From assembly GCA_965207095.1 (NCBI GenBank), contig OZ242270.1:687378-751377 (forward strand): 64,000 nt of DNA, in the 5' to 3' direction. Origin of the DNA: Candidatus Poribacteria bacterium (GTDB lineage: Bacteria; Poribacteria; WGA-4E; PCPOR2b). Below, one piece after another: positions 5,206 to 24,789 of this stretch. Position 1 is the stretch's first letter, and every line of letters starts with the position of its first letter. A model generated the notes under the pieces. The model worked only from the letters and a program-made list of their open reading frames with translations. It was not told the DNA's origin and ran no database searches. The translations under genes were made by a program, and so were the position numbers.

Positions 5206-5228
5206 AGCGCCGTCGAATCCCTTTTTCT

Positions 5229-5372
5229 TATAGTGGACCTAAGGATTAATGAAACACGCCAAACCGATGCGGTTGGAAACCGCAGCTACTGGGTTCGAGT
5301 GAATGCGGTGCGGTTGGAAACCGCACCTACCGGAGGGCGAAAGTGTCTATTTATTTTTCGAATTCACAATAA
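5229..5372. mobile_element. MITE-like interspersed repeat family A, copy 1
   Basis: Shares termini (5' TATAGTGGACCTAAGGATTAATGAAACAC .. 3' GTGTCTATTTATTTTTCGAATTCACAATA) and internal palindromic modules TGCGGTTGGAAACCGCA x2 with the copies at 7736, 18849, 24285 and 61591. Confidence 0.6.
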
Positions 5373-5377
5373 ATACA

Positions 5378-7735: not shown

Positions 7736-7908
7736 TTATGGTAGATTTCAGAATTAATGAGACACTCCAAACCGGTTGCAGTTAGGAAACCGCTCCCTAC
7801 CGTTCTGCCGTTTGGTAGGCACTGTTTCCAACAGTGTCGATGCGGTGCGGTTGGAAACCGCACCTACCAAGGGCGAAAGCGTCTATTTATTTTTAGAATT
7901 CACCATAG
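7736..7908. mobile_element. MITE-like interspersed repeat family A, copy 2
   Basis: TATGGTAGATTTCAGAATTAATGAGACAC ... GTCTATTTATTTTTAGAATTCACCATAG. The 5' flank is identical over 30 nt to copy 5 at 61591. Confidence 0.65.
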
Positions 7909-8311
7909 TATGCGGGCCTGATGCTTCCATAAGCACCCTGACCCATTCTCGGTTCGTTACTGAAAAAACCGCTGAACAGAAACTACGCCTGTGAGGCAGA
8001 CAACAACGCCTTTTCGACTGCGGTAGGCAGTTGCATCAGATGAAAGCGGCTGGCTGTATAAGCATAGTCTTCCCCACTTTCATCTATAACGCGAATATAG
8101 CCATGTGCCGTAGCGTCATCGTCAGGGATCACACGATACAATTTCCCTACCTCAAGAGAAGCAGGGTATCCTTCATTACTGAGACATAGACCAAATTGCG
8201 GAAACTGGTTTTTCTATTTTATTCATCACTAAAACGTATTGGACCATCAACGAGACGGGTATCTGCTGCTATTAATAAAACCGCAGCTCCTGCCGCCATT
8301 GTAACGGCAGA

Positions 8312-9317: not shown

Positions 9318-9524
9318 CTATGCCTTTTGTTGATGCTGGTCAATAATTTTTCCCAACGCTCTCAAAGCAGAGTTCACTGATTTAGCATCAGGAAATATTT
9401 TGGCAACATCATCGTCAAGCCTAACAATATTTGTGCCTTCCCGATATCTCTGGGCATATTTGCCCCGAACGCCTTTACTGAAATCGTATTCATCAAGTAA
9501 ATCCGGATCTTGTTGATTGAGCAT
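9318..9524 (-). CDS. BrnA/DUF4415-family antitoxin-like protein
   Basis: DEYDFSKGVRGKYA motif followed by IVRLDDDVAKIF and ALRAL, as in BrnA-type antitoxins. No BrnT (DUF497) gene is adjacent. Confidence 0.55.
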   Translation of the reverse strand: MLNQQDPDLLDEYDFSKGVRGKYAQRYREGTNIVRLDDDVAKIFPDAKSVNSALRALGKIIDQHQQKA

Positions 9525-9663
9525 CGTTTTCTCTATAGCTTATCCCGTCGCAAATACTTTCCAGTTGAAACTGCTTCAAAAACCTGATAGAATTAGAACA
9601 ATTATACAACCCCTTCCAAACCCTTGTCAAACCCAAAACTGCGGTCAAGGGAGAGCCCCAGCC

Positions 9664-12515
9664 ATGCGACTCCGGACAAAACTCTTACTTCTCGGTTTCC
9701 TCGTCCTACTGATTAACAGCGCGTACCTAATCAGCTTCGGGGAGCCGACCCTATTTTACATCGGGAACGTCCTACTTCATATCGTCCTCGGTGTTGCGCT
9801 GATTGTCCCGTTTATTGTCTATGTGTGCAAGCGTTTCGATGGCATGTCGATTATCGGCAAAGGCGGGGTGATTGCTCTCGGAGTCGGGGGGATTTCGGGC
9901 GTGTACCTGATGTTCGTCGGTGCTACAACGCCCAACCGCTGGCTGCTCATCGTGCATATCGTGGCGGTGACGCTCGGTACGATTCTACTTGTCGGACATC
10001 TGTTGATTTTGGCGAGACGAGCGGAGACCGAGCTTTCACGCAGAGCGGCGCAAGTCACCGGAATTGTCCTCCTCGTTAGCCTGCTGTTTCCCGTCGGGGC
10101 AAGGCTGATCCAACACTATCGACCCAACCCGGACTATCTGGTGAAAAACCCGCTCTCCCCACCGACCAGTATGTATGAGGAGGGCGGCGGCACCGATGGA
10201 CCATTCTTCCCCGCTTCCGTCGAGACCTATACCGGCGATCTGATCCCCACCGACTTCTTTCTGACCTCCCAAACCTGCGCCGAAAGTGGATGCCATCCGG
10301 ATATCTACAGGCAGTGGAACGAATCAGCGCATCACTTCGCCTCCTTTAACAATCAGTGGTATCGCAAGTCGATTATGTATATGCAGGATGTGAATGGGAT
10401 CCAACCGTCGAAATGGTGCGGTGGGTGCCACGATCCCGCAATCCTGCTGAACGGCGTGATGGATCGACCGATCCGGGAGAATATGCACACCCCCGCTGCC
10501 CAAGCGGGACTTGCGTGTACGGCGTGCCATTCGATGGAGAAGGTCAAAGATACGATGGGCAACAGCGGCTATGTTATCAAGTACCCGCCGCTGCATGAGA
10601 TGGCAGCCAGCGAAAACAGTGCAATCCGTAAACTCCACAATTACCTGATTCGACTGGATCCCGAACCCCATAAAAAGAGTTTCCTCAAGCCGTTCCACCG
10701 TCAGAATACCGCAGAGTTCTGTTCCACCTGTCACAAGGTGCATCTCGATGTGCCGGTCAACAATTTCCGATGGTTCCGTGGCTTTGACGACTACGATCAG
10801 TGGCAGATGAGCGGTGTTTCCCATCAGGGGGCATTGTCCTTCTACTACCCCGAAGAACCGAAGAAGTGTGTTGACTGTCACATGCCGTTGGTGCCCTCAA
10901 AAGACGCAGGGAATATCAATGGAAAGGTGCACAGCCACCGCTTTCCCGCGGCGAATACGGCGCTCCCGTTCGTGAACAAGCACGCCGACCAACTCAAGGT
11001 TACCACTCGATTTTCTTCAGGACAATCAGGTGAGCGTGGATATCTTCGCGCTGAGTCCTGCAACACCGATCCAACCCCAATCCCATGGTGCAGCTGGTAT
11101 CAGCACAGCCCCCGCCAGACCACAACTCCGTGCTTTCAGTATGATGGAGGGCGGAAGTCAGGGACACGCCGTGGGGACGGTAACGGACATAACGAAGCTG
11201 ATCGCTCCCATCGACAGGTCCAACGCGACGGTTCAGCGCGGCAAGGAGGTTCGAGTTGACCTTGTCGTTCGCACAAGGGGCGTGGGACACCGATTCCCCG
11301 CCGGCACAATTGACGCCTTCGATATCTGGTTGGAGTTGAAGGCGACGGACGAAAACGGAAAGGTGATCTTTCTGGAGCGGGCAGATTGAAGCGGAAGATG
11401 GAAACGGACCGGTTGATCCGGGGGCGCACTTTTACCGGGCGTATATGTTGGACGAACACGGAAACCTTATCAATAAGCGCAACGCTTGGGCGGCGCGGAC
11501 GGTCCTCTATACGAACACCATTCCGCCCGGCGCTGCGGATACCGTTCATTACCGGCTCCTGATCCCACCGGACTGTGGGGACGAGATTCAGCTGCACGCA
11601 AAGTTGAATTACCGCAAATTCAACTGGTGGCATACACAGTGGGCTTATGCGGGGGTGCGCGATCCGGAGGACACCGATTTTCAGGTGGATAAGGGTTATG
11701 ACAATGGACGTTGGATCTTCACAGGGGATACATCGGATGTCGCTGGGAAGATCAAAGCGATTCCTAACCTCCCAATTGTCGTCATGGCAGAGGATAGGGC
11801 AAGGTTGCGGGTGATAGATCAGGACGGGTCGAGCGAGCCGGTAACCGGTCAATCCAAGGAGAAGCCGAAATCGAATCACCGTGAGCGTTGGAATGACTAC
11901 GGGATTGGGCTACTCCTTCAGGGGGATCTCAAGGGTGCCGAAGCAGTGTTCCTGAGAGTTACGGAGATTGAGCCGGGCTATATGGACGGGTGGGTCAACG
12001 TCGCACGGTGTCGTATTGAGGAAGGGGATATGAGAGGGGCGGAGGAGATGCTTGACAAAGCGATGGCACTCCAGAAAGAACTGCCTCCCGGCAACCCGCA
12101 CCGAGCGAAGGTGCACTACTTTTATGCGCTCGTGCAAAAGGCTTACGGGAAATATGATGTCGCGCTCGAACACCTGCGGACTGCTGCCCTCCAATTTCCG
12201 CGGGATCGGCGGGTTCTGAATGAGATTGGTAGGCTGCTCTACCTGCAGCGGAAGTATGAGGAAGCATTGGCAGAATTTCAGAAAACGTTGGCGGTTGACC
12301 CGGAGGATCTGGATGCGCACTACAACATGATGTTGTGCTATCGTGCGCTCAAGAATGAGGTAATGGCAGCGAAGGCGCAGAAACTGTATCTGCGGTTCAA
12401 GGCGGATGAATCGGTTGACGCTATCACCGGGATCACCCGTCGCGCTGACCCGTATGCGAATATCGAGCGTCAGCGGATTCATGAACACACTTCCGGGTTG
12501 AGTGAACAGAAGTGA
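9664..12515 (+). pseudogene. Membrane-anchored multihaem c-type cytochrome with C-terminal TPR domain, read through three frames (two frameshifts at ~10980-11030 and ~11364)
   Basis: GGGAGAG RBS before the ATG at 9664. N-terminal TM helices. Four CxxCH haem motifs (CGGCH, CTACH, CSTCH, CVDCH) plus CAESGCH. Frame 2 (from 10976) and frame 0 (from 11367) each continue without a stop and read as one continuous protein ending in TPR repeats. Confidence 0.6.
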
Positions 12516-12560
12516 GTAATCTAACAAAATCTAACAGAATCTAACACTTTTGCAAAAATT
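12508..12560. repeat. Iteron-like repeat family G copy (3 x ~11-bp ATCTAACA(A/G)A units + TTTTGCAAAA palindrome)
   Basis: AATCTAACAAAATCTAACAGAATCTAACACTTTTGCAAAAATT. Direct copy at 12795-12838, inverted copy at 23102-23140. Confidence 0.55.
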
Positions 12561-12794
12561 GGGGGGTTAGTCATTTTGTTTACACATCACATGTCGCCCC
12601 GATGGGGCTAATGGTTGGGGGTTACCAACCTGCGTTGGGCGACGGGCGAGGGGACCTCGCCCCTACGATTACGGACAATTTTACATAAATGTCAACACGC
12701 CCTAGTCATTTTTCACATGTCGCCCCGCTGGGGCTATGGGAATACATTGAAGTGTTGGGTTTCACGATCACGGTTCAGACAAACTACGCGCTGT

Positions 12795-12838
12795 CAAAAC
12801 CTAACAGAATCTAACAAAATCTAACACTTTTTACAAAA
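12795..12838. repeat. Iteron-like repeat family G copy
   Basis: AACCTAACAGAATCTAACAAAATCTAACACTTTTTACAAAAATT. Confidence 0.55.
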
Positions 12839-12908
12839 ATTCTATAAAGTAGGTCGAGATTCATATCTCGACACCCAAATGTCGATTTTAGAAAATCGAC
12901 CTACAATA

Positions 12909-13024
12909 GGGCAACCACAAGTTTCTTAATCCCGATTTATCGGGGGGTTGCCTCCTACAGGAATCAATCAAATGTAGGGGCAGGTTTCTTAATCTCGATC
13001 TATCGGGGTCTTGTGCCTGCCCAT
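12909..13024. repeat. Structured intergenic repeat family D, copy 2 (with an internal partial duplication)
   Basis: CCACAAGTTTCTTAATCCCGATTTATCGGGGGGTTGCCTCCTACAGGAATCAA..ATGTAGGGGCAGG, with an extra TTTCTTAATCTCGATCTATCGGGG module inserted inside the GGCAGG/CCTGCC hairpin. Confidence 0.5.
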
Positions 13025-13113
13025 CTAGTTCTTCTTTTTTCTGCGGAGATTCGTGTTAATTCGTGGAGGTTTTAATACTTTTTATCCAAACCCAATAAAG
13101 GAGAGAATCAACA

Positions 13114-13941
13114 ATGGCTTACACACTTGAAGATGAATTTGGCGATATTATTGGCAAGGCGAGGCGTGGGAACGGTTTGAGCGTGGGCGACGTTGCTGCC
13201 CAAGCAGGACTTACGGAGGCGCAGGTGTCCCAGATGGAGGACTATACGCTGAAACCGACAGAGGATCAGGTCCGTAGCATCGCGGCGTGCCTCAATCTTA
13301 ACGGCGCACGGTTGGCGGACATTACGATGGAACGTTGGTCACCGGAACCGGTCCCTGCGGGATATGACGACGCTTTGGAGGTGGTCACCATCACAGCGGA
13401 TGTCGGCGGTTGGCCCGTCCATGCGTACCTATTGGTGTGCAAAGCGACGAATAAAGCTGCTATTATCGACACAGCAGCGCATCCGGACGATGTGCTGCAG
13501 AAGGTGGCGGAAACCGGCGTGGAGCCGTCCCTCATTCTACTGACGCACGCACACGGCGACCATGCGAACGGTCTGATGGATATTGAACGGGCGACGGGCT
13601 GCCCGACATATATCCACGCGCAGGAACCGCAGCCGCGCAGCACCCGACAACTTCGGCTCCTCAACCACGGGGATGAAGTGGCGGTCGGTAACCTTTCTGT
13701 GAAAACGCTCGACACACCGGGACACACGCCCGGCGGTTGCAGCTTCCATACCCGTTCCACAGTGATTGTCGGGGACGCGCTATTTGCGGGATCGGTCGGG
13801 GGTGCGAACATTTCGTATACTGATCTGTTGGCTGGAGTTCGGAATTACCTGCTTTCGCTGCCCGACGATACGAAACTCTTTCCCGGACACGGTCCCGCCA
13901 CGACCGTCGGCGAGGAAAAGGCGCATAACCCCTTCTTCTAA
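13114..13941 (+). CDS. Fusion protein: N-terminal XRE-type HTH domain + MBL-fold metallo-hydrolase (glyoxalase II-like)
   Basis: HTH region GLSVGDVAAQAGLTEAQVSQME. MBL motifs LTHAHGDHANG, TPGHTPGG, PGHGP. AGGAGAG RBS upstream. Confidence 0.7.
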   Translation: MAYTLEDEFGDIIGKARRGNGLSVGDVAAQAGLTEAQVSQMEDYTLKPTEDQVRSIAACLNLNGARLADITMERWSPEPVPAGYDDALEVVTITADVGGWPVHAYLLVCKATNKAAIIDTAAHPDDVLQKVAETGVEPSLILLTHAHGDHANGLMDIERATGCPTYIHAQEPQPRSTRQLRLLNHGDEVAVGNLSVKTLDTPGHTPGGCSFHTRSTVIVGDALFAGSVGGANISYTDLLAGVRNYLLSLPDDTKLFPGHGPATTVGEEKAHNPFF

Positions 13942-13998
13942 GGTTGGTATCCGATAGATAACTACTGATATAATAGAGGGGTGCTCATAATTATTGTA

Positions 13999-14157
13999 GG
14001 AGTTAAGCACTTCAGTAAGGAATAATGATCGTTGTTCCCTACGGACTCCTTATGGAGCCTCTACTGTAGTTGCCCGATTTATCGGGCGTTGGGAACGGTG
14101 CCCAGCGGCGATAAATCGCTGAACTACATGGATTTGAGCGTTCAGCTGCGTAAGTCC
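13999..14157. repeat. ~160-nt multi-hairpin structured element family B, copy 1
   Basis: Perfect or near-perfect nested palindromes (GGAATAATGATCGTTGTTCC; CCCGATTTATCGGG; GGCGATAAATCGC; CTGTAGTT..AACTACA). Second copy at 14326-14484. Confidence 0.55.
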
Positions 14158-14325
14158 TACATTCTCTGAATCAGGATTTACAGGATTTAAGGGTTAACAG
14201 GATAATATATCTCCAATCCCCCTATAAAGACATACAGATGTTCGGGGTCAGGGAGGTGAAAACAGGAAGCTTTTAGCCCCAGCGGGGCGACAGGTGTAAC
14301 TTGAGCTAAATCTTTCTTAAGGATA

Positions 14326-14484
14326 GGAGTTACGCACTTCAGTAGGGAACGCAGATCTGCGTTCCCTACGGACTCCTTGTGGAGCCTATGCTGTAGTTGC
14401 CTGATTCATCAGGCGTCGGAGATTGTGTCCTACGGCGATAAATCGCCGAACTACAGGGCTCGGGGCATCCAACTGCGTAACTCC
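14326..14484. repeat. ~160-nt multi-hairpin structured element family B, copy 2
   Basis: Closed by a 10-bp stem GGAGTTACGC...GCGTAACTCC. Internal hairpins GGGAACGCAGATCTGCGTTCCC, CCTGATTCATCAGG, GGCGATAAATCGCC. Outer stem CTGTAGTT/AACTACAG. Confidence 0.55.
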
Positions 14485-14518
14485 TAAAGGAACTAAAAAG
14501 AACAGTTGAGGTGATAAT

Positions 14519-16087
14519 TTGAGTACAATCCAAAGCGGTATTGAAAATCGCCTGTGGACGATAGCAGATGAGTTGAGAGCAAACTCACGGCTCCGGGCGT
14601 CTGAGTATTCAACGCCCGTGCTAGGGTTGATATTTTTACGGTATGCAGACCACAAATTCACGCAGGCGGAAGGGGAAATCCGCGAAACCGCATCCACCGG
14701 TAGCAGGCGCACGAGAATCTCAGATCAGAGCGCAGCATATCATGCCCGCGGTGCCTTCTACCTCCCAGAAAACGCGCGTTTCCAGTACCTGTTGAACCTA
14801 CCGGAGAGCGAGGATATTGCACGGGCTATCAACGACGCGATGCGGGCGATTGAGGAAGCAAACAACAGTCTTGATGGTGTTCTACCCAGGACCTACAACC
14901 GCCTTGAACGGAGTGTCCTCTTTGAACTGCTCCGCACCATGGCAGAAATTCCGATGGACATTGAGGGCGATGCGTTTGGTAAGATCTACGAGTATTTCCT
15001 TGGCAACTTTGCCATGGCGGAAGGGCAACGGGGCGGCGAGTTCTTCACTCCCACCTCTCTGGTGAAACTAATTGTTGAGATTATCCAGCCCTTTCAAGGA
15101 CGAATTCTGGACCCAGCGTGCGGTTCTGGCGGTATGTTCGTCCAGAGCGCCGAGTTTATCCATAACCACCAACAGAATGGGAACAATCGGATCAGCATTT
15201 ACGGAACGGAACGGGTTGCAGAAACAATTCGGCTCTGCAAAATGAACCTCGCCGTGCATGGACTGGAAGGCGACATCCGGCAAGCGAACAGCTACTACGA
15301 GGACCCGCATCGATGTGTGGATAGATTCGACTTCGTGATGGCAAATCCGCCGTTCAACGTGGATAGGGTGGACAGGGAACGGCTTAGGGATGACCCACGA
15401 TTTCCGTTCGGGATGCCCCGCGTGGATAACGCCAACTATCTCTGGATTCAGTTGTTTTACAGCGCCCTCAACGCCTCTGGTCGGGCAGGGTTTGTGATGG
15501 CAAACTCCGCCGCCGATGCCCGTGCCTCTGAATTGGAGATCCGCAGGCAGATTATCGAATCCCGTGCCGTTGATGTGATGGTGAGTATCTCCTCCAATTT
15601 CTTCTATACCGTCACGCTGCCCTGTACCCTCTGGTTCTTCGACAAGTCTAAAGGGGAGAGCGATCGAGCGGATAAGGTACTTTTCATTGATGCCCGCCAT
15701 ATCTACCAACAGGTAGATCGAGCACACCGAGAGTTCACACCCCAGCAGATTGAATTCCTGTCCAACATTGCGAGGCTGTATCGGGGCGAACTCCCTGAAA
15801 ACCAGCACGACAGCGCGGATATGATGGCAGCGAAATTCCCCGATGGCGTGTACCTTGATGTGCCCGGTCTTTGTAAGGTGGCAACAGTTGAGCAAATAGA
15901 AGCGCAGGGGTGGAGCCTCAATCCGGGACGGTATGTCGGGGTTGCAGAACGGGAAGAAGATGCGTTTGACTTCGCGGAACGGTTGGGAGAACTCAACGAG
16001 GAGTTAGAAGTCCTGAACGTTGAGGCACGTCAGTTGGAGGAACGGATTGGAGAGAATGTGGCGATGATTTTGGAAAACAGAGTATAA
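14519..16087 (+). CDS. hsdM: Type I restriction-modification system DNA methyltransferase subunit (N6-adenine)
   Basis: N-terminal HsdM_N-like region LWTIADELR...[13 protein letters not shown]. Catalytic NPPFN motif (ANPPFNV). AdoMet motif [10 protein letters not shown]. Confidence 0.9.
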
Positions 16088-16409
16088 TAACCAATGGTAC
16101 TAGCTTGCAGCTGTTGATAAGCTGAAACGTGAAAATCATTGGTTCATTTAGCCCCAGCGGGGCGGCATGTTTATAGCAGGGGCGATCCCCCAAATCCCCA
16201 AGCCCCAGCGGGGCGATATGTGTATAGTATAAGGTGTCCGCAGATAAAATCGTCAAGTAGAATACAGAGAGCATTGTTTCTGCCATTAGGGAGGTTGCAT
16301 GAACATGGACGAAAAATAAGAGTTAATAGAAATCTACAAACTTCACGCAGAACTTGCTGACAGCGTCAGCAGACAACGAGGCACAACAAACCGTTTTTAT
16401 ATTTTACTC

Positions 16410-16757
16410 ATGTCAGGATTATCTGTGCTCTTCTGGGCACTATTACAACTCCGAAATGGAGTGCCGCTTGGCGACCTGATGATAGGTTTCGGGCTATTGG
16501 GCACATCACTCGCAGTCGCTTGGTACATCCACATCCGTTCCTACCGCCAGCTAAATTCGGGTAAATTTAAACCCCTACATGAGTTAGAGGAGAAGCTCGC
16601 TTACCCTTTTTTCAAGCGGGAATGGGAACTACTCGAAGAAGGAGAGAACCCGAACAAATATTGGAAGTTGACTGTTGTTGAAACCTTTGTTCCTATCATC
16701 TTTTTCCTTCTCTTTGCGGTGGTGTTGTTTATCGGGATTTACCTATTGCTGCGCTGA
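16410..16757 (+). CDS. Small membrane protein (3 predicted TM helices), unknown function; reading frame is open a further 90 nt upstream to an in-frame TAA at 16317
   Basis: Hydrophobic segments MSGLSVLFWALLQL, LMIGFGLLGTSLAVAWYIHI and FVPIIFFLLFAVVLFIGIYLLL. The upstream in-frame peptide ELIEIYKLHAELADSVSRQRGTTNRFYILL reads as a genuine amphipathic helix, preceded by ATG..TAA (MNMDEK*). Confidence 0.45.
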   Translation: MSGLSVLFWALLQLRNGVPLGDLMIGFGLLGTSLAVAWYIHIRSYRQLNSGKFKPLHELEEKLAYPFFKREWELLEEGENPNKYWKLTVVETFVPIIFFLLFAVVLFIGIYLLLR

Positions 16758-16760
16758 AAT

Positions 16761-16772
16761 TCCATTGTCTGA
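16761..16772. promoter_or_regulatory. Palindromic operator-like site GAATCAGGATTC (5-2-5 inverted repeat)
   Basis: Identical 12-mer at 17177-17188. Related GAATCAGGATTT at 14168, and an inverted variant at ~17266. All lie in intergenic spacers of the R-M locus. Confidence 0.25.
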
Positions 16773-16868
16773 ATCAGGATTCTCCCCGATAGATCCCCGA
16801 TATATCGGGACAGGCGGGACAGGCAGGATGGAAGGATTCTCAGGATAGCACATGAGAGCGGAGAGATT

Positions 16869-17150
16869 ATGCAAGAAAAAGATAGAAAACGAGATCCGAT
16901 GCCCCCTCCCGATGCAACCCCAGAGGAGATTGGCGAATTTTGGGATACCCACAGCCTATCCGATTATTGGGACGAAACCCACGAGGTGGATTTTCAGATC
17001 AATCTCAAACTGAAACACAATCTGGTCCCGGTGGAACGTGAGATTGCCGAGCAAATTAACGCACACGCAACAAAACAGGGCGTATCGGCTGAAAAATTGG
17101 TAAACCTCTGGCTTCGAGACAAATTAAAAGGGATTACCACAAGGCAATAA
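16869..17150 (+). CDS. CopG-family antitoxin-like protein (PF12441/BrnA-type partner of BrnT), orphan
   Basis: PEEIGEFWDTHSLSDYWDETHEVDFQI is the hallmark N-terminal motif of this antitoxin family. No DUF497/BrnT gene is nearby. Confidence 0.6.
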   Translation: MQEKDRKRDPMPPPDATPEEIGEFWDTHSLSDYWDETHEVDFQINLKLKHNLVPVEREIAEQINAHATKQGVSAEKLVNLWLRDKLKGITTRQ

Positions 17151-17176
17151 GCAAGGGAAGATGGTGCAAATTGTCA

Positions 17177-17188
17177 GAATCAGGATTC
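17177..17188. promoter_or_regulatory. Palindromic operator-like site GAATCAGGATTC, second copy, ~120 nt upstream of hsdS
   Basis: Exact repeat of the 16761 site within the 20-bp direct repeat TTGTC(T/A)GAATCAGGATTCTCC. Confidence 0.25.
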
Positions 17189-17307
17189 TCCAGATTGAAG
17201 AAGTTTCACGATAGTGGATGGCAGTGGATAGCATCAATCCTGTAAATCCTAAAATCCAGTAAATCCAGATTCAGACAGAGTGCAATGATGATTTTGGAGA
17301 AGACAGC

Positions 17308-18589
17308 ATGGTGCAACGTGAAGATTGGAAACCTTTTCGTTTGGATCAATTGGGCTTTGTTGGACGCGGGAGGTCCCGAAGCCGACCAAGAAATGATCCT
17401 GCTCTCTACGGGGGACCTTATCCGCTATTTGAAACAGGGGATATTAAATCCACCGATCTTTACCTGTCAAAGTCAAAGAAAACTTACAATGAAAAGGGAC
17501 TAGCTCAAAGCAAACTGTGGAATCCTGGTACACTTTGCATCACGATTGCTGCTAATATCGCGGAAACTGCGATTCTGAAAATCAAGGCATGTTTTCCAGA
17601 TAGCGTCGTTGGTTTCGTTGCGGATCCTGAGACGACTGATGTAAGATATGTTAAATACTACATTGATTTCATCAAACTACAAATGCAAAACATATCGCGG
17701 GGAACAACACAAGATAACCTGAGTGTAGAGAAGTTGTTATCCTTTGAGTTTTTCGCGCCGCCGTTGAATACTCAACGCAAAATCGCCGCAGTCCTCAGCG
17801 CCTACGACGACCTGATCGAGAACAACACCCGCCGCATCGAAATCCTTGAGGAGATGGCGGGGGCAATCTACCGAGAATGGTTTGTCGAATTCCGCTTTCC
17901 GGGGCATGAGGGGGTGAAGATGGTGGAGTCGGAGTTGGGCTTGATACCGCAGGGGTGGGAGGTAAACAACTTCGGTGAGGTTTCGCAATTACATAGAGGA
18001 AAATCGTACAGAAGTCAGGAATTTAGTCGAAGATGCAAGAGGGAATTGCCATTCCTTAACCTGAAAAACATTGATCGGGAAGGCGGATATAGAATTGATG
18101 GTCTGAAATGGTATGATGGAAGAAACGCAGATTGATCTCAAAGACATTGTTATGGCACTGTGATTGACACAAGATGGGAGAATTGTTGCCCGTTCCACTC
18201 GTAATTCCCAATATAGGGCGCGAAATAATAATGTTTTCTATGGATCTTATTAAAATCAAACCGGAAGAATCATTTCAAACAGACTTTCCTTTTATGCCTT
18301 GTTCAGATACTCAAGCCTTACCTGATAGTACTCAAAGAGTATGCTAATGGCGCGAGTCCAAACATCTAAGCCCCAGTCATGTTCAATCATCTGAATTAGT
18401 TTGCCTCCCAGTGAATTAAGACAAAGATATGCTGAGATTGCAGAGTCCAGTTGGACCAACAAAGTGATTTGCTACTTAGAAAGAAAAACACCAACCTCCG
18501 CCAAACCCGCGATCTCCTACTCCCCAAACTGATCTCCGGCGAGATTGACGTATCCGAACTTGATATCGACACCGACTGATACTATTCCC
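17308..18589 (+). pseudogene. hsdS: Type I R-M specificity subunit HsdS, disrupted: TRD1 + central conserved region + first ~65 aa of TRD2 (17308-18135), then ~300 nt without coding capacity, then a conserved C-terminal 51-aa remnant (18436-18589) in the same frame
   Basis: Central conserved region LSVEKLLSFEFFAPPLNTQRKIAAVLSAYDDLIENNTRRIEILEEMAGAIYREWFVEF. C-terminal remnant [31 protein letters not shown] is the typical HsdS distal conserved region. The 18136-18435 segment has stops in all forward frames and is AT-rich. Confidence 0.7.
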
Positions 18590-18630
18590 AAAAAGGAACA
18601 TAAGCGTATGCGACCCGAACCCCTGAAAGA

Positions 18631-18853
18631 ATGAACAGACCGAATTGTTATTGACGAAGCAGTTCTGACCGGAAAGCCTGTTATCAAGGGCACCCGTTTA
18701 GCTGTCGAGTTCATTATTGATCTACTGGCACACGGCTGGAGTGAAGCAGAGATTCTTGAAAATTACCCCGGTATTGTGGTTGAGGACATTCGAGCGTGTC
18801 TCGCTTACGCCAGTGCGACGTTACATGCCGAAGAAAATTATAATGGGTCTTAG
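18631..18853 (+). pseudogene. DUF433 domain protein; start apparently separated from the body by a +1 frameshift (MNRPN | RIVIDEAVLTGKPVIKGTRL...)
   Basis: RIVIDEAVLTGKPVIKGTRLAVEFIIDLLAHGWSEAEILENYPGIVVEDIRACLAYA matches DUF433. Its frame has no ATG after the preceding stop. An ATG at 18631 is in the +1 frame and reads MNRPNCY*. The TAG stop codon is formed by the first 3 nt of MITE copy 3. Confidence 0.5.
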
Positions 18854-18942
18854 AATTGATGAGACACACCAAACCGGTGCGGTTAGGAAACCGCACCTAC
18901 CGGGCGGGCGAAAGTGTCTATCTGTTTTTAGAATTCACCATA
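18849..18942. mobile_element. MITE-like repeat family A, copy 3 (short form, single palindromic module)
   Basis: TAGAATTGATGAGACACACCAAACCGGTGCGGTTAGGAAACCGCACCTACC..GAAAGTGTCTATCTGTTTTTAGAATTCACCATA. Confidence 0.6.
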
Positions 18943-18957
18943 AAGGAGGAAATTGAG

Positions 18958-19215
18958 ATGAATTTAACCGTTGAACTAACAACCGATCAGGTCGTCGGTT
19001 TTGTCCAACAGATGCCAGCCGAAGAAAGACGGTCACTACTACTCGCGATTGCAGAGCAGGCAGCAGCCAATCGGGAAACACGTATAGACCGTGCTGAAAC
19101 ACAGTTGCGGCAGTTGTGTAAAGATCGGGGGTTGGATTGGGATGCCATGACCGAGGCAGAGCGCGAAAATTTTATTGATGATCTGATCCACGAGGACCGC
19201 GAATGCAACCAATAG
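18958..19215 (+). CDS. Putative antitoxin / addiction-module component, cognate to the downstream PIN gene
   Basis: 85-aa acidic helical protein with an AAGGAGG RBS. Overlaps the PIN gene by 13 nt, as in translationally coupled TA pairs. Family not recognised. Confidence 0.45.
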   Translation: MNLTVELTTDQVVGFVQQMPAEERRSLLLAIAEQAAANRETRIDRAETQLRQLCKDRGLDWDAMTEAERENFIDDLIHEDRECNQ

Positions 19216-19610
19216 CCGTTTACGATACAAACATTTTGTTGTCAGGTATCGGCTGGCGAGGTAGTCCGTATCGTTGTCTTGAATTGGCACGGCAGGGCAG
19301 CGTTGAAGGGTTGACCTGCTCCGAAATACTGGATGAATTGGCGGAGAAATTAACGACTAAACTCAACTTTCCGGTGTCCGAAACTACTGATGTAATCGCG
19401 GATCTCCTTGGTTTCTTGCGGGTGGTCAAGATTACCAACACGCTCAAAGCCATCTCTGCCGATTCGGACGACGACAAAGTCATTGAATGTGCCGTTGTGG
19501 GGGAGGCAACCCATATTGTAACCGGCGATCGCCGTCATCTGTTGCCACTTGGCAGCCATCAAGGTGTCCTTATTGTCACAGCAGCGGACTTTCTTGGACA
19601 GTTTTCATGA
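19203..19610 (+). CDS. PIN-domain protein (putative type II toxin, TIGR00305-like)
   Basis: VYDTNILLSG N-terminal acidic motif. Later conserved D residues (..VTGDRRHLLPL..) are typical of small PIN toxins. Confidence 0.6.
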   Translation: MQPIAVYDTNILLSGIGWRGSPYRCLELARQGSVEGLTCSEILDELAEKLTTKLNFPVSETTDVIADLLGFLRVVKITNTLKAISADSDDDKVIECAVVGEATHIVTGDRRHLLPLGSHQGVLIVTAADFLGQFS

Positions 19611-19655
19611 ACTGGAAAAAATTGACCAAAGATAAAAGTTGCGAACCAGTAAATC

Positions 19656-22600
19656 ATGCAGAATAATCCGTACAGCGAAGACCAACTGGTTGAACAAACC
19701 GCCATCGCCCTACTCGCAGGAATGAGGTGGGAGACCTTGGACTGTTACAACGAATTCGATCACGGTAGCAGTCCGCTCGGTAGGGAGAATAGGGGCGAAG
19801 TGGTTCTGATAAGGCGGTTACGCGCTGCCTTGAAGAGGCTCAACCCCGATGCGTCCAGTGAGGCAATCGGTGCAGCGATTGAGGAGTTGACCCGCTCCCG
19901 TGCGACAATGAGCCGCGAAGAAGCCAACTATGAGATATACAGGCTACTCAAGGATGGTGTGAAAGTTACAATCACGGACCCGGACGGCGAAGGTGAAACC
20001 GATGAAATACTAAAGGTAATTGATTGGGAGAATCCAGAGAATAACGATTACTTTCTGGCATCACAGTTATGGATCGCCGGTGAGATGTACACTCGCAGGC
20101 CTGATGCAATCGGCTTTATCAACGGCTTACCCTTAGTGCTGATGGAGTTCAAACGGATTGACGAAAACCTTCACAGCGCATATCAGGACAATCTCAGGGA
20201 CTACAAAGACACAATCCCCCACCTATTCTGGTACAACGCCGTGATTATCCTCTCCAACGGCTCAGAGAGCAGATTCGGTAGCTTGACCGCGAGTTGGGAA
20301 CATTTCACCGAATGGAAACGGGTTGAGCGCGAAGATGAACAGGGAGCGGTTTCGCTGGAAACAATCCTAAAGGGGATATGTGAACACCGCCGGCTGTTAG
20401 ACATTATCGAGAACTTCACACTGTTTATGGAAGTCCAAGGCGGGTTGATTAAGCTAATCGGCAAGAACCATCAATACCTCGGCGTGAACAACGCGATCGA
20501 TGCCCTGCGTGGGATAGAGTCGAATCAGGGAAAACTCGGTGTCTTCTGGCATACGCAAGGCTCAGGAAAGAGCATCTCGATGATTTTCTTCGCGCAGAAG
20601 GTGCTGAGAAAGATACCGGGCGGTTGGCGGTTCGTTATCGTGACTGATCGCAGAGAGTTGGACGACCAGATCTATAAAAACTTCGCAGATTCTAGGGGCG
20701 TGGTCACGCAGGGGGAGGTCCATGCGGAGGATATCCAGGGTCTCCGGCAGCTGTTGAGCGAGGATCACCGCTATATCTTCACGCTTATCCAGAAGTTCCA
20801 AACAAAGGACGATGCACCGCATCCCGTCCTCTCCGATAACGCAAACGTCATTGTCATTACCGATGAATCACACCGCAGCCAATACGATACATTGGCGTTA
20901 AACATGCGGACGGCGCTTCCCAACGCGGCATTCATCGCCTTCACCGGGACACCGTTAATCGACGGAGAGGAACGGACGAAGGAGGTGTTCGGGGAGTATG
21001 TCTCGATTTACGACTTCAAGCAGTCGGTTGCGGACGGTGCGACCGTGCCGCTCTATTACGAAAATCGGGTGCCTAGAATGCAGTTGATCACCGAACACCT
21101 AACCGAGGATATAGAACAAATCCTTGAATCAGCCGAACTGGACGAAACACAGGAAAACAGGCTTGAACAGGAGTTTGCGATACAGTACCAGGTCATCACG
21201 CGGGAGGAACGGTTAGAAGCGATTGCGGCAGATATTGTCTCCCACTTTATGGGACGAGGATACCGTGGCAAGGCGATGGTCGTCTCAATCGACAAAGCCA
21301 CCGCCGTCAAGATGTATGATAAGGTGGGGGAATATTGGAGAAACTACTGTGAGGAGTTGAAGGAGCAGTTAAGCGATACCACCGAGGCCGCGGAACGGGG
21401 TACTCTGGAAGAAAAGATTCAGTACATGGAGGAGACCCGTATGCGGGTGGTGGTTTCCCAGTCGCAGAACGAGATTGGTGATCTGAGAGCGAAGGGTGTG
21501 GACATCACTCCACATCGGCAACGGATGAACACCCAGGATTTGGATGCCAAATTCAAAGACCCAGAGGACCCGTTCCGTATCGTTTTCGTCTGCGCGATGT
21601 GGATGACCGGTTTCGATGTACCAGCTTGCTCAACAATCTATTTGGATAAACCCCAACGTAACCATACCCTGATGCAGACTATCGCTAGAGCCAATCGCGT
21701 CTTCAAGGATAAAGTCAACGGCTTAATCGTCGATTACATCGGCATCTTCCGAAACCTTGAGCGAGCGTTGGCGATTTATGCAGATGGCACTGATCCAGAT
21801 GGCACCGATCCGGACGGCAAGAATCCTATCCGGGATAAATCGGAACTTGTCGAGGAGCTCAGAGGAGAGACCACGGAGATTAAGGCGTTCTGCACGGACC
21901 TCAATGTGAACCTCGTCCAGATTGACGCAGCGGAGACAGAGCCCCTTGAACGTATCAGACAAATCAATGACGCCGTAGACCGGATATTGATCAATGACGA
22001 GATTAAAGGGGATTATCTACAACGTGCACGCCAAATCTCTCGACTATACAAGGCAATCCTCCCCGATCCCGCGGCGAGCGATTTCAACGGGATCTGCACC
22101 CTCATTAACATCATCGCGAAGAAGATCAAGAACCTGACACCAGCACCGATCGACACTACGGATGTGATGGAGCAGATCGAGGATCTACTAGATCAATCAA
22201 TCGTGCCAACGGGTTACATCATAGAGGTAGCTGGAGATTACGAAACGGATTCGATTGTCGATCTGAGTCGGATTGACTTCGACGAACTCCGGGAAAGGTT
22301 TAGGACGCAACACAAACATATTGAGGCGGAAAAACTGAGGGGATCAATCCGGCGGAAGCTATCCGAGATAATACCGCTTAATGGGACCCGAATGGATTAT
22401 CAGGAACGGTTCGAGCGGATTATCGCGGAGTATAATGAAGCTGCGATAGATGTTGATACGTGGTTTGAACAACTGATCGAATTGGCGGGAGAACTCACGG
22501 AGGAGGAGCAGCGTACCATTGCTGAGCAACTCACCGAGGAACAGTTAGCGGTGTTTGACCTGCTAACTCGACCTGAGATTGAGTTAGATGAAACAGAGAG

Positions 22601-22844
22601 AGACAAAGTGAAAGCTATATCCAAAGATTTACTCACGAAGCTGAAACAGGAGAAGTTGGTTTTGGATTGGCGTCAACGCCAACAATCCCGCGCGGCGGTC
22701 AAAGTCACTGTCGCAGAGATCCTCGACGAACTGCCGGAACGTTACACGCAGGAGATATATGATCGGAAGTGCGAGGTCGTGTATCAACACATTTACGATT
22801 GTTACTACGGCGCCGACAACAGTATTTATGGAAGCGCGGCATAA
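19656..22844 (+). CDS. hsdR: Type I restriction enzyme R subunit (endonuclease/helicase)
   Basis: HsdR N-terminal domain. SF2 helicase motifs HTQGSGKS (Walker A), VITDESHRSQ (DExH), FTGTP, VDYIGI. Length 1062 aa. Confidence 0.9.
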   Translation: MQNNPYSEDQLVEQTAIALLAGMRWETLDCYNEFDHGSSPLGRENRGEVVLIRRLRAALKRLNPDASSEAIGAAIEELTRSRATMSREEANYEIYRLLKDGVKVTITDPDGEGETDEILKVIDWENPENNDYFLASQLWIAGEMYTRRPDAIGFINGLPLVLMEFKRIDENLHSAYQDNLRDYKDTIPHLFWYNAVIILSNGSESRFGSLTASWEHFTEWKRVEREDEQGAVSLETILKGICEHRRLLDIIENFTLFMEVQGGLIKLIGKNHQYLGVNNAIDALRGIESNQGKLGVFWHTQGSGKSISMIFFAQKVLRKIPGGWRFVIVTDRRELDDQIYKNFADSRGVVTQGEVHAEDIQGLRQLLSEDHRYIFTLIQKFQTKDDAPHPVLSDNANVIVITDESHRSQYDTLALNMRTALPNAAFIAFTGTPLIDGEERTKEVFGEYVSIYDFKQSVADGATVPLYYENRVPRMQLITEHLTEDIEQILESAELDETQENRLEQEFAIQYQVITREERLEAIAADIVSHFMGRGYRGKAMVVSIDKATAVKMYDKVGEYWRNYCEELKEQLSDTTEAAERGTLEEKIQYMEETRMRVVVSQSQNEIGDLRAKGVDITPHRQRMNTQDLDAKFKDPEDPFRIVFVCAMWMTGFDVPACSTIYLDKPQRNHTLMQTIARANRVFKDKVNGLIVDYIGIFRNLERALAIYADGTDPDGTDPDGKNPIRDKSELVEELRGETTEIKAFCTDLNVNLVQIDAAETEPLERIRQINDAVDRILINDEIKGDYLQRARQISRLYKAILPDPAASDFNGICTLINIIAKKIKNLTPAPIDTTDVMEQIEDLLDQSIVPTGYIIEVAGDYETDSIVDLSRIDFDELRERFRTQHKHIEAEKLRGSIRRKLSEIIPLNGTRMDYQERFERIIAEYNEAAIDVDTWFEQLIELAGELTEEEQRTIAEQLTEEQLAVFDLLTRPEIELDETERDKVKAISKDLLTKLKQEKLVLDWRQRQQSRAAVKVTVAEILDELPERYTQEIYDRKCEVVYQHIYDCYYGADNSIYGSAA

Positions 22845-23153
22845 TCACCGAAACGGTTCTGCTGGTGGATGGGTGTCATTCTGCGAAGGAAGGTGAATAG
22901 CTGCAGGGAGTCATTATCGAATACAGGACTTACGCACTTCAGTAGGCAGCGCGAGATTTTTTTAACCCCCTAAATCCCCCTTATCAGGGGGACTTTGACA
23001 AGTTCGCCAAGGTCGTATTGGTAATGTCTACTTACTTATTTCTCTAATTCACTCACAATCACTTCCAGCATGGAGCAATCACAAAACGGGAGCCACGCGC
23101 AATTTCTGTAAAAGTGTTAGATTTTGTTAGATTTTGTTCGGTGGTAAATTGTA

Positions 23154-23188
23154 GGGAACAACGATCGTTGTTCCCTTTTTTATTTTTT
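23154..23188 (+). terminator. Rho-independent terminator-like hairpin (GGGAACAACG-ATC-GTTGTTCCC followed by TTTTTTATTTTTT)
   Basis: Perfect 10-bp stem with a 3-nt loop and a T-run, ~310 nt downstream of hsdR. The same hairpin is the inner hairpin of element family B. Confidence 0.45.
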
Positions 23189-23222
23189 CTTTACCCTATT
23201 GGCAATTTAGGTTACAATAAAT

Positions 23223-24275
23223 TTGATGACACAAAAACCCGAAATAGATCCCACCGAATCCCGAAAAGGAAGAATCTATCTATGGCTTGCGATTCTGATA
23301 TTCGGTGCTGCTTCAGCGGTGGTCGCCAAGCTGATAATGATCGGGGAGGGCGCGCTGCTCGACGGACGGAATCCGATAGCGTTCTGCAATGTGCTGTTCG
23401 CTGGGAACGTCATCGCTGGCCTGACGCTATTGGCCATCTTCCACGGAGACTGGCGACCTTCTGAACTCAGAAAACTGACCTTCAAACAGTGGCTTGTGCA
23501 GCTTGTCTTGGCGGCGACATCGGGTGCGTTGGCACCGTCGCTGATGTTCCGTGCCGTTGAACAGACTTCGGTTACAAACATTGTGCTGATTGAAACGATC
23601 GAGATTCCGTTGGGGCTGTTCTTGGCGTGGCTGCTCTACCGCGAGAAATCGAGTTGGAGCGCAGTCATTGGGGCGGTCCTGGCTTTAATTGGCGTCGCGA
23701 CAACCATCTGGCTGCAGATGGGTCAACCCAGTGAAATGATGCAGCAAGGTCAGATGCGCGGCGGTATTGGACGCGGTGAAATCTACGCAACGGCTGGCAC
23801 GTTTCTTCTGGTGCTTGGGGCGGAACTGGGTCGCAAGCAACTTCGGACGATTCCGTTGGGGGTCTTCAGCGTTTTCCGCAATGTTGTCGGCTCGATCATC
23901 TTTCTGATCGTCGTGCTCATTATGCTCGGACCGGGACATTTTATGGATCTTTTCAGACCCGTCCTCTGGGGTTGGATGGCGTTGTATGGAAGTATCATCG
24001 TTGTGTGCGGTCAACTCTGTTGGTTTTCGGGCATCAAGCGGGTCACACCGGCTGATATTTCGTTAGCCTCCGCATTTTCACCGATCGCCGGAGTCATCTT
24101 CGCATTCCTGATACTCGGCGAAATCCCGATGATCGCGCAAATCATCGGTGGCGCGGTGATACTCTGCGGCATTGGGGTCGGGCTTGCCGGAGACCTTAAA
24201 TTCCCACATAGAGAAGAAAAACGGCTGCGGTCCGCCAAATCGGAAGACAAACCCAAGGCATTTACAGGCGTTTAG
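23223..24275 (+). CDS. DMT-superfamily (EamA-like) transporter
   Basis: About 10 predicted TM helices in two repeated halves. No other motif recognised. Confidence 0.5.
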   Translation: MMTQKPEIDPTESRKGRIYLWLAILIFGAASAVVAKLIMIGEGALLDGRNPIAFCNVLFAGNVIAGLTLLAIFHGDWRPSELRKLTFKQWLVQLVLAATSGALAPSLMFRAVEQTSVTNIVLIETIEIPLGLFLAWLLYREKSSWSAVIGAVLALIGVATTIWLQMGQPSEMMQQGQMRGGIGRGEIYATAGTFLLVLGAELGRKQLRTIPLGVFSVFRNVVGSIIFLIVVLIMLGPGHFMDLFRPVLWGWMALYGSIIVVCGQLCWFSGIKRVTPADISLASAFSPIAGVIFAFLILGEIPMIAQIIGGAVILCGIGVGLAGDLKFPHREEKRLRSAKSEDKPKAFTGV

Positions 24276-24284
24276 CACTATAGT

Positions 24285-24772
24285 GGACCTTAGAATTAAT
24301 GGAGGGGTGTGCATGTGTAGCAATCTAGGTAGATCAACTCTATTGCTGTGCATACACATTGCGCCCCTCTGGAGCGCAGGCATTGACTTTACCGCCGTTC
24401 TATAGACATATCGCTCCGCTGGAGCGAAGGTTTCTGTCGAATCATAAGGACTTTCGTGTATTCGGGTTGCTGAAAGGACATGAATCTGGTAGTAGTTCTG
24501 TTTGCTTATCAATATTTTCTGCGTAATCAACTGACTCCATGATTCAAACAATAATGATGTACACCCCTCAATTAATGAGACACGCAAAACCGGTGTGATT
24601 AGGATACCGCACCTACCCTTCTCCCGTTTAGTAGGCACTGTTTCCAACAGTGCCGATGCGGTGCGGTTGAAAACCGCACCTACCGGCTCCGATAATTAGT
24701 TTACCCCGATTTATCGGGGCGACCGAAACCGAGGGACGAAAGTGTCTATTCATTTTTCCAATTCACTATAGG
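24285..24772. mobile_element. MITE-like repeat family A, copy 4, interrupted by a nested ~259-bp element
   Basis: Family A 5' end TATAGTGGACCTTAGAATTAATG at 24285-24300 and the remaining body AATTAATGAGACACGCAAAACCGG...GTCTATTCATTTTTCCAATTCACTATAGG at 24561-24772. Confidence 0.6.
24301..24559. mobile_element. Nested small non-autonomous element (family E) with imperfect terminal inverted repeats, flanked by an 8-bp duplication AATTAATG
   Basis: Left end GGAGGGGTGTGCATGT, right end ATGTACACCCCTC (reverse-complement match 13/15). Host sequence AATTAATG is present on both sides. Interior contains the paired palindromes GCGCCCCTCTGGAGCGC and ATCGCTCCGCTGGAGCGAAGG. Confidence 0.5.
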
Positions 24773-24789
24773 TTCATTGAGGAGAAAAT

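Follow-up and report, generated by a model that had tools for sequence, protein, structure and literature searches.

Variable cargo in a slot between core genes: a probable defence hotspot in Candidatus Poribacteria

The block at positions 12508–23192 of a 64,000-nucleotide stretch of DNA (the window) from a Candidatus Poribacteria bacterium (contig OZ242270.1) carries a type I restriction–modification (R-M) operon interleaved with toxin–antitoxin (TA)-like genes. Copies of a short direct-repeat array, termed G, lie near both of its ends. An earlier note, made from the sequence alone, described the block as an inserted or invertible genomic island bracketed by these repeats. Comparison with relatives points elsewhere: the block probably consists of a conserved backbone and variable cargo in a defence hotspot flanked by core genes, and the repeats neither define the cargo nor move it. 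The proposed architecture has two parts. (i) The backbone, at 12508–13975, would be a mosaic of Poribacteria intergenic repeats resembling bacterial interspersed mosaic elements (BIMEs), together with a core gene that fuses a helix–turn–helix (HTH) domain to a metallo-beta-lactamase (MBL) domain. (ii) A 9.2-kb cargo, at about 13976–23150, would occupy a hypervariable defence hotspot between the HTH-MBL gene and an EamA transporter gene. In the window this cargo is a type I R-M operon (hsdM, hsdS, hsdR), in which a PIN toxin–antitoxin pair, an 8xMP membrane protein, a CopG-like gene and what is left of a DUF433 gene are embedded.

The slot and its alleles

Thirteen syntenic alleles were compared: three orthologous blocks among the G-containing ones, and ten contexts reached through EamA homologues. 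No relatives came out of a scan of metagenome contigs with EamA. All nine relatives that span the slot, at 84–91% identity, keep the order cytochrome/TPR, HTH-MBL, slot, EamA, GFO_IDH_MocA and peptidase M24; synteny is lost in L110, whose EamA is 64% identical. A 275-aa HTH-MBL orthologue is present in all nine relatives that reach that far (L072, L086, L087, L100, L103, L104, L105, L106 and L109). Between these conserved genes about eleven slot states are found, two of them empty. Four alleles show one flank only: the L072 sequence stops within hsdM, and those of L101, L102 and L108 start within the cargo. The alleles are as follows, with the state of G on each side.

L104: slot empty, 267 bp; left G no; right inverted G no
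L086: slot empty, 457 bp of repetitive extragenic palindromic (REP) sequences; left G yes; right inverted G no
L087: DUF433 only; left G yes; right inverted G no
L103: DUF433, a 271-aa protein and FRG/TPR; left G no; right inverted G no
L106: DUF2806 and FRG/TPR; left G no; right inverted G no
L105: one 1037-aa protein; left G no; right inverted G no
L100: 185-aa protein, DUF433, 85-aa protein, DDE insertion sequence (IS), SLFN_AlbA_2 and 284-aa protein; left G yes; right inverted G yes
L109: 173-aa protein, IS and 564-aa protein; left G no; right inverted G no
L108: methyltransferase (MTase)-HNH fusion among others; contig ends before the left side; right inverted G yes
L101: 85-aa protein, PIN and hsdR; contig ends before the left side; right inverted G yes
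L102: SLFN_AlbA_2, hsdS, NACHT and hsdR; contig ends before the left side; right inverted G yes
L072: hsdM onward; left G yes, two copies; block ends before the right side
Window: hsdM to hsdR with TA-like genes; left G yes, two copies; right inverted G yes

The pattern is that expected of a core hotspot: conserved genes stand on both sides and several unrelated cargos, including none, lie between them. The defence-type cargo seen comprises type I R-M, NACHT, SLFN_AlbA_2, MTase-HNH and PIN/DUF433 TA-like genes; the 1037-aa, 564-aa, FRG/TPR and DUF2806 cargos are without an established defence role. The 1037-aa protein of L105 (6809–9922) and the 564-aa protein of L109 (8204–9898) have no Pfam match, and the cargos of L103 (4338–6609, FRG plus TPR and the 271-aa protein) and L106 (7226–9911, FRG plus TPR and DUF2806) are also without known function. 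These function-less cargos are candidates for uncharacterized defence genes.

The ends of the variable part are fixed by the two R-M-less alleles L086 and L087. Homology of the window to them stops at 13975 and resumes at 23151, so that the HTH-MBL gene, the 600-bp repeat leader before it and the second G copy belong to the backbone and the variable part spans about 13976–23150. A defence-type segment between ordinary genes stands as the earlier note had it, and empty counterparts exist in L104 and L086, but its boundaries lie inside 12508–23192. Bracketing by repeats is likewise true as geometry, but the repeats are inverted and, placed outside or inside the true junctions, miss the ends of the segment that varies. 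The junctions themselves are not uniform. Left-hand divergence begins anywhere from 8 to about 55 nt past the MBL stop, depending on the allele. On the right, a hairpin at 23153–23176 is common to most alleles, and the window, L100 and L108 share a further 80–110 nt or so that includes the inverted G. Because junction positions differ between alleles, no fixed att-like site is apparent. The features of an integrase island are all missing: there is no encoded integrase, no tRNA or att site whose flanking direct repeats coincide with the ends of the segment, and no compositional signature. No tRNA lies in the 64-kb window, and no integrase, transposase, recombinase or invertase domain was found among the block proteins scanned with Pfam and PADLOC, in agreement with the earlier note. 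Nothing points to the unusual mechanism of mobilization that the note considered.

The genes of the block and its flanks, whose types as given in that note are borne out by Pfam and PADLOC, are listed here with the variable segment.

9517–12515, +: cytochrome c554-like/TPR gene (multihaem; Pfam), left core flank, in open reading frames (ORFs) 9517–11259 and 11445–12515
13114–13941, +: HTH (HTH_31)-MBL fusion gene, core gene (Pfam)
13976–23150: segment varying between relatives (hotspot cargo), delimited by the homology break against L086 and L087
14519–16087, +: hsdM, type I methyltransferase (Pfam N6_Mtase 2.6e-84, HsdM_N; PADLOC MTase_I 1.5e-227)
16410–16757, +: 8xMP-family small membrane protein inside the operon (Pfam PF24838 1.2e-23; no PADLOC match)
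16869–17150, +: CopG-type antitoxin-like gene (Pfam PF12441 2.9e-9)
17308–18579, +: hsdS, apparently disrupted (Pfam/PADLOC, tblastn)
18608–18853, +: DUF433 gene remnant, with 84–86% identity to its DUF433 counterparts in L087, L100 and L103
18958–19215, +: 85-aa antitoxin-like gene overlapping the PIN gene
19203–19610, +: PIN-domain toxin gene (Pfam PIN_3 6.9e-18)
19656–22844, +: hsdR, type I restriction subunit (Pfam HSDR_N, SWI2_SNF2, T1RH-like_C; PADLOC REase_I 6.2e-189)
23226–24275, +: EamA/DMT transporter gene, right core flank (homologues with PF00892; synteny EamA, GFO_IDH_MocA, peptidase M24)

The R-M system in the window has HsdM and HsdR but not an intact HsdS with two target recognition domains (TRDs). 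The hsdS ORF ends at 18135, with TRD1 and the central region intact (17308–18135); TRD2 is frameshifted (piece 18174–18347), and the C-terminal conserved region is in frame again (18451–18579). With the 426-aa HsdS of L102 as tblastn query, the window aligns at residues 105–233 and 385–418 only, in the same frame. Either the R-M system is possibly inactive or it may function with an HsdS of half size. Since frameshifts affect the core cytochrome/TPR gene too, the hsdS disruption could be an assembly error. In L100, L104, L106 and L109 the cytochrome/TPR gene is one ORF of 949–951 aa; in the window tblastn finds it in three frames, broken up by a pair of frameshifts (near 11010 and 11370), one of the indels lying within a T-run. 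Either the core gene is becoming a pseudogene or the assembly has indel errors, which makes other frameshifts in the window doubtful. The DUF433 remnant has an in-frame TGA at 18632–18634, and a miniature inverted-repeat transposable element (MITE) at 18838–18945 (families D4, D7 and D2) stands in place of its 3' end. In L101, as in the window, the 85-aa gene and then the PIN gene precede hsdR; L100 also has the 85-aa gene.

The G repeat and the mosaic around it

G is made up of 10-bp AATCTAACA units, after which comes CTTTTnACAAAAATT. Its general form is two to four phased AATCTAACA 10-mers plus CTTTT(T)nCAAAAtT, and it is non-palindromic. As first reported, it occurs twice in direct orientation and once inverted in the window, amid other short repeats:

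12518–12561, +: G copy 1, three AATCTAACA 10-mers then CTTTTGCAAAAATTG; full sequence AATCTAACAAAATCTAACAGAATCTAACACTTTTGCAAAAATTG
12589–12748: two REP-like hairpin units (ACATGTCGCCCCGMTGGGGCT, family D5) between G copies 1 and 2
12798–12841, +: G copy 2, upstream of the HTH-MBL gene
12853–13015: further REP-like hairpins, with GTCGAGATTCATATCTCGAC, TGTCGATTTTAGAAAATCGACCTACA and two copies of a GGGCAACCACAAG...TTAATCCCGATTTATCGGGG unit (families D10 and D14)
13997–14159 and 14324–14486: two 163-nt MITE-like elements of family B (family D3), 80% identical
22925–23005: small MITE with a CCCCCTTATCAGGGGG core, distinct from family B
23100–23142, −: G copy 3, inverted, on the right flank upstream of EamA
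23153–23176, +: terminator-like REP hairpin with a T-run, at the right junction
23190–23218, +: promoter-like site for the EamA gene

Copy 1 starts two bases past the end of the TPR gene (12515). The inverted pairing is real: 12523–12561 pairs with 23100–23138 over 39 nt at 92% complementarity, and 12799–12831 with 23110–23142 over 33 nt at 94%, with an exact run of about 24 nt common to the inverted copies. The window has eight perfect AATCTAACA 9-mers, every one of them within the three copies, and the chance expectation for the 24-nt G pattern in the window is 0.00 matches.

The copies on the two sides behave independently of each other and of the cargo. Copies 1 and 2 form a G-REP-REP-G composite, a duplicated arrangement that is found also in L072. 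Copy 2 lies at the orthologous place in L072, L086, L087 and L100. Its 31-nt sequence AATCTAACACTTTTTACAAAAATTCTATAAA is identical across the window, L072, L086 and L087, a perfect conservation of the core at orthologous sites against about 85% identity of coding DNA. Copy 2 belongs to the conserved backbone. The right inverted G is a right-flank feature of one sub-clade. It occurs with four different cargos (the window, L100, L101/L102 and L108), and L101 and L102 have some 480 bp of additional REPs between it and the hairpin. Given this independence from the cargo, the two G sites behave as separate, lineage-specific intergenic features. The G copies in the window, one G-REP-REP-G composite and one solitary, are old features of two flanks and not the ends of an island.

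G is in fact widespread. An exact scan for its 19-base core AATCTAACANAATCTAACAC, with one genome per species, found it in at least 99 stretches, of which all but five (about 94) belong to Candidatus Poribacteria, in roughly 14 genomes; these counts come from the genomes of relatives and not from the window's own, the best syntenic identity being 85–90%. One 6.76-Mb contig has at least 27 separate 8-kb blocks with G. Among the matches listed, 108 of 109 Poribacteria instances are intergenic by crude ORF calls; 59 share their strand with the next gene downstream and 39 are opposed to it. As a consensus the instances give agTTATCCAcAAT.aCCTa.CAAAATCTAACAaAATCTAACAC and then TTTT..cAAAAtT, with two, three or four ten-base units in 61, 41 and 5 instances, respectively. 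Flanking sequences fall into several subfamilies that have only a core of about 45 nt in common. The core is typically followed by REP-like hairpins in varying combinations, for example TGTCGATTTTGGAAAATCGACCTACAG, GGGCAACCACAAGGGTTGCCCCTACAG and ACATGTCGCCCCGCTGGGGCT; the D10/D14 modules come after G cores in many genomes. Direct G-REP-REP-G pairs 149–343 bp apart are frequent at other loci, a layout that copies 1 and 2 share. In copy number, intergenic placement and mosaic make-up, G is one module of genome-wide interspersed REP/BIME-like mosaic repeats.

Defence genes are not enriched beside it. When 145 ORFs adjoining G were set against 145 control ORFs from the same blocks, the adjacent set had three Cas1, and the controls had several Cas proteins, one type I R-M protein and one type IIG R-M protein. 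Both sets consist mainly of ordinary metabolic families (PhyH, epimerases, SDRs and GFO_IDH), and the neighbours of G, TPR proteins included, are of the same kinds as the controls. A repeat that is common across genomes with no enrichment at island edges is the outcome that the earlier note itself had named as refuting its reading. The three Cas1 ORFs stand directly beside G (3/145, among L001–L099), with further cas genes in the same 8-kb blocks, and some genomes may have G within or close to CRISPR leaders.

Several identities for G were considered and rejected. A phage-derived sequence is not indicated by one match to the G pattern among 2.9 million viral contigs. As a sigma-70 promoter it fails at every copy for want of a consensus match, the orientation ratio is 59:39, and no conserved −10 element follows the core. 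The ORFs adjoining the best subfamily, a trypsin-TPR protein, an aminotransferase, an ADH and a DUF2779 protein, are not transposases, as the ends of an IS or transposon would require. Replicon iterons are contradicted by dozens of sites per chromosome and ordinary metabolic neighbour genes. Rfam gave nothing credible on window positions 12000–24500 or on the long G-containing repeat of L007. Other roles are unsupported because no promoter consensus, RNA family or adjacent transposase is found. The 10-bp phasing and the perfect conservation of the 31-nt core make G most likely, as a best guess, a putative phased binding array for a host DNA-binding protein. That it is more specifically a Poribacteria-specific protein-binding module, with dozens to hundreds of intergenic sites that titrate DnaA or a nucleoid protein, or serve as recombination-prone landmarks that aid cargo exchange in hotspots, is distinctly unlikely; such a module, if real, would be previously undescribed.

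Two further observations concern G elsewhere in the phylum. A perfect DnaA-box-like 9-mer, TTATCCACA, accompanies 40 of 107 instances of the core (51 of 107 if one mismatch is allowed), always 41 nt ahead of the last 10-mer's end. Examples are L007 (3990–4050) and some 40 other loci (L014, L016, L023, L026 and L031 among them), and 40 of the 62 occurrences of the 9-mer in 903 kb of Poribacteria DNA belong to G copies. It is absent from the three G copies of the window and from the rest of the window. One subfamily of G lies inside a 400–700-bp non-coding dispersed repeat with several copies per genome (L007, 3680–4460). Matches to this repeat occur in L014, L015, L021, L024, L033, L035, L043, L054, L068, L076, L077, L082, L085 and L094; it adjoins unrelated ordinary genes (trypsin-TPR, aminotransferase, ADH), with no Rfam match and no adjacent transposase.

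The other repeats are dispersed too. The two full family-B copies inside the left boundary were correctly identified in the earlier note. They have terminal inverted repeats AGGAGTTACGCA...TGCGTAACTCCT, and copies at unrelated loci (L032, L057, L081, L083 and L087), as is typical of MITEs. The third, disrupted copy proposed for the right boundary dissolves into two other things. Its part at 22925–23005 is a different MITE, whose CCCCCTTATCAGGGGG-core sequence shares only the terminal AGGACTTACGCA motif with family B; copies of this MITE 96% identical stand in L101 and L102, and a complete one with both terminal repeats in L087. Its supposed inner hairpin, at 23153–23176, is conserved in L086, L087, L101, L102, L103, L105 and L106, five of which (L086, L087, L103, L105 and L106) lack the island; L104 is without it. 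In L100 this hairpin (9905–9960) has a 27-nt insertion in its loop, GGGAGCAACGATC[CTCCGGTCTACGACCGAGAGGCCCAGG]GTTGTTCCC, which suggests that the conserved hairpin is a target for small insertions.

Further short intergenic repeat families abound in the window (D2, D4–D8, D10, D14 and D16). Family D5 has additional copies at 24356, 24406, 61683 and 61734, and its unit recurs at many loci across Poribacteria. A composite MITE-like element of about 110–250 nt has five window copies (5228–5384, 7736–7920, 18838–18955, 24554–24783 and 61591–62058), one of them within the R-M operon; its order is TTATRGTRGA...AATTAATGAGACAC...GGTGCGGTTGGAAACCGCACCTACC...GGGCGAAAGTGTCTAT...GAATTCAC (D2, D4, D6–D8 and D11). 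GTAG opens or CTAC closes most hairpin units (GTAGGGAACAACGATCGTTGTTCCCTAC and ...AAAATCGACCTACAG are examples), in the window at 12853–13015 and 23151–23176 and at many other loci. Such GTAG/CTAC borders are the signature of REP sequences of the REP-associated tyrosine transposase (RAYT) type. A literature search for REP elements in Poribacteria gave no relevant paper, and the REP/BIME/MITE-like mosaic repertoire of these bacteria is apparently rich and undescribed.

Turnover of the cargo and competing explanations

The cargo does not look foreign. GC content is 0.490 in the cassette and 0.498 in the window, and the tetranucleotide distance of the cassette ranks 6th of 55 windows. The hsdR gene is about 86% identical to those of L101 and L102, and flanks are 84–90% identical. 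Divergence of the R-M genes equal to that of the flanks argues against recent foreign arrival; on this ground and on composition, a foreign origin of the cassette was rejected. Closely related alleles nevertheless differ in content. Over 9.5 kb right of the slot, L100 (9942–19429) and L101 (4899–14385) are 99.3% identical, and their slots have only a short DUF433/85-aa stretch in common. L101 (848–6064) and L102 (5890–11106) are 97.9% identical from hsdR to EamA; upstream of hsdR, L101 has a PIN toxin–antitoxin module and L102 has NACHT and hsdS. On these comparisons, slot turnover appears to be rapid at strain level, and modules appear to be swapped inside the type I R-M operon as well.

In the proposed mechanism, RecA-type homologous recombination between strains would exchange cargo through the conserved flanks and through shared modules such as hsdR. 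Deletions and the activity of IS and MITE elements would contribute, and no element-encoded site-specific recombinase would be involved. The type I R-M operon would serve as a scaffold for accessory modules: TA pairs, NACHT, Schlafen-AlbA and 8xMP.

Another history would be purely vertical: an ancestral R-M/TA cassette at this locus from which every other state arose by deletion, nothing having come in by exchange. It draws on the DUF433 remnants, which keep the same order in L087, L100 and L103 and suggest that part of the cargo is old and was differentially lost. The 85-aa gene common to L100 and L101, the flank-like divergence and native composition of the R-M genes, and the degraded look of hsdS and DUF433 in the window fit it as well. 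Exchange is indicated all the same because unrelated cargos cannot arise by deletion alone, and FRG/TPR, DUF2806, the 1037-aa protein, MTase-HNH, NACHT and Schlafen-AlbA are such cargos. Nor does decay explain nearly identical flanks around unrelated cargo in L100 and L101, or a different module 5' of hsdR in the otherwise matching L101 and L102. Vertical decay as the whole account is therefore unlikely. The remaining alternatives give the repeats an active part. That the whole of 12508–23192 is an inserted or invertible island with inverted G ends, served by a recombinase in trans, is highly improbable. The inverted copies do pair, defence genes do lie between them with no integrase, and L100 has inverted G on both sides; but the HTH-MBL gene and the left G stay in place in the R-M-less L086 and L087, the same gene is present in the G-less L103–L106 and L109, and homology breaks away from the repeats. 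G is moreover a genome-wide intergenic sequence with no preference for defence genes. As for inversion, all 13 syntenic alleles have one orientation, and the block proteins include no invertase domain.

A composite in which family-B copies at both ends mobilize the R-M cassette is less probable still, to the point of being barely credible. In its favour, the variable segment has the two full copies close within its left edge, and pieces resembling parts of family B (D15, 28 nt at 89%, and D17, 26 nt at 88%) lie close to its right one. Yet those right-hand pieces are the different MITE and the conserved hairpin described above, the R-M-bearing L072 has other MITEs and no family B at its left junction, the L101/L102 cassette has its 480 bp or so of other repeats at the right junction, and family B itself is scattered over unrelated loci. 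A functional G, that is, a recombination or regulatory signal that promotes the hotspot (for example a nucleoid-associated or OmpR-type binding array, or a DnaA-linked element), is quite improbable, if less so than either mobile structure. Unit phasing, the invariant 31-nt core, the perfect TTATCCACA at fixed offset in 40 of 107 copies and G on both hotspot flanks in several lineages would suit it. Against this, alleles with no G on either flank are equally variable (L103, L105, L106 and L109), defence genes are not enriched beside G, its orientation bias is weak, and no sigma-70-like promoter coincides with it.

The hotspot reading has its own difficulties. Three G copies within 10.7 kb are a local excess over a rough genome density of at least one per 100–200 kb; this excess is attributed to the tandem composite and coincidence. 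The G layout of L100 is the closest to that of the window, and a role of the G pair in some lineages is possible. Gene calls near G copies are crude, being the longest ORFs, the G counts are lower bounds taken from relatives, and the mechanism of recombination is read from allele comparison.

Comparison with known systems and implications

Defence hotspots with diverse cargo, often with no detectable mobile element, are described in E. coli (hotspot #37) and P. aeruginosa (PMC10121019). At E. coli hotspot #37, 68% of occupied cases are without a detectable mobile element, hotspot #36 is the type I R-M locus, and the E. coli type I R-M locus is reported to be flanked by a transposable element (PMC10121019). 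The Poribacteria slot resembles these core hotspots in being a fixed place between core genes that is empty or holds diverse defence cargo (R-M, NACHT/STAND, Schlafen-type, TA), often with no recognizable mobile element or mode of mobilization. It differs in its host, an uncultured sponge-associated lineage of another phylum, in its HTH-MBL and EamA flanks, in being packed with REP/MITE-like repeats, and in several cargos without known function. Unlike the E. coli type I R-M locus, the window has no flanking transposable element; IS copies are present in L100 and L109.

The immigration control region of E. coli offers a second parallel. Its hsd, mcr and mrr genes show cassette-like allelic variation, which is attributed to recombination in conserved flanks. 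There, as here, strains differ at a fixed chromosomal site, where type I R-M genes may be substituted, missing or accompanied by other restriction genes. Here, unlike there, modules also appear to be swapped inside the operon, and the hsdS of the window is apparently broken.

For the repeats, the nearest models are the REP and BIME sequences of enterobacteria and pseudomonads, of which some BIME motifs bind host proteins such as integration host factor (IHF) and gyrase. Shared features are short intergenic units in many copies, palindromes with GTAG/CTAC borders, and mosaics with non-palindromic motifs. G differs as a phased array of 10-bp direct repeats, often preceded by a DnaA-box-like 9-mer, and no RAYT gene or binding protein is linked to it, though no search aimed at RAYT was made. 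Plasmid iterons and G have in common short tandem direct repeats beside A/T-rich sequence, together with a DnaA-box-like motif in many copies. Plasmid-type iterons are typically 17–22 bp long, whereas G has two to four units of 10 bp at dozens of sites per chromosome, with no adjacent rep gene and ordinary neighbours.

The picture of a repeat-bracketed mobile or invertible island would thus give way to that of a chromosomal defence hotspot in uncultured sponge symbionts, in which near-identical strains (99.3% in the flanks) carry different immune cargo with no element-encoded recombinase. This would extend to Poribacteria the pattern of core defence hotspots established in E. coli and Pseudomonas. 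Scans of Poribacteria genomes should discount mosaic repeats before repeats are taken as island boundaries. The slot between HTH-MBL and EamA would be a defined place in which to seek new defence genes, with the 1037-aa, 564-aa, FRG/TPR and DUF2806 cargos as starting points.

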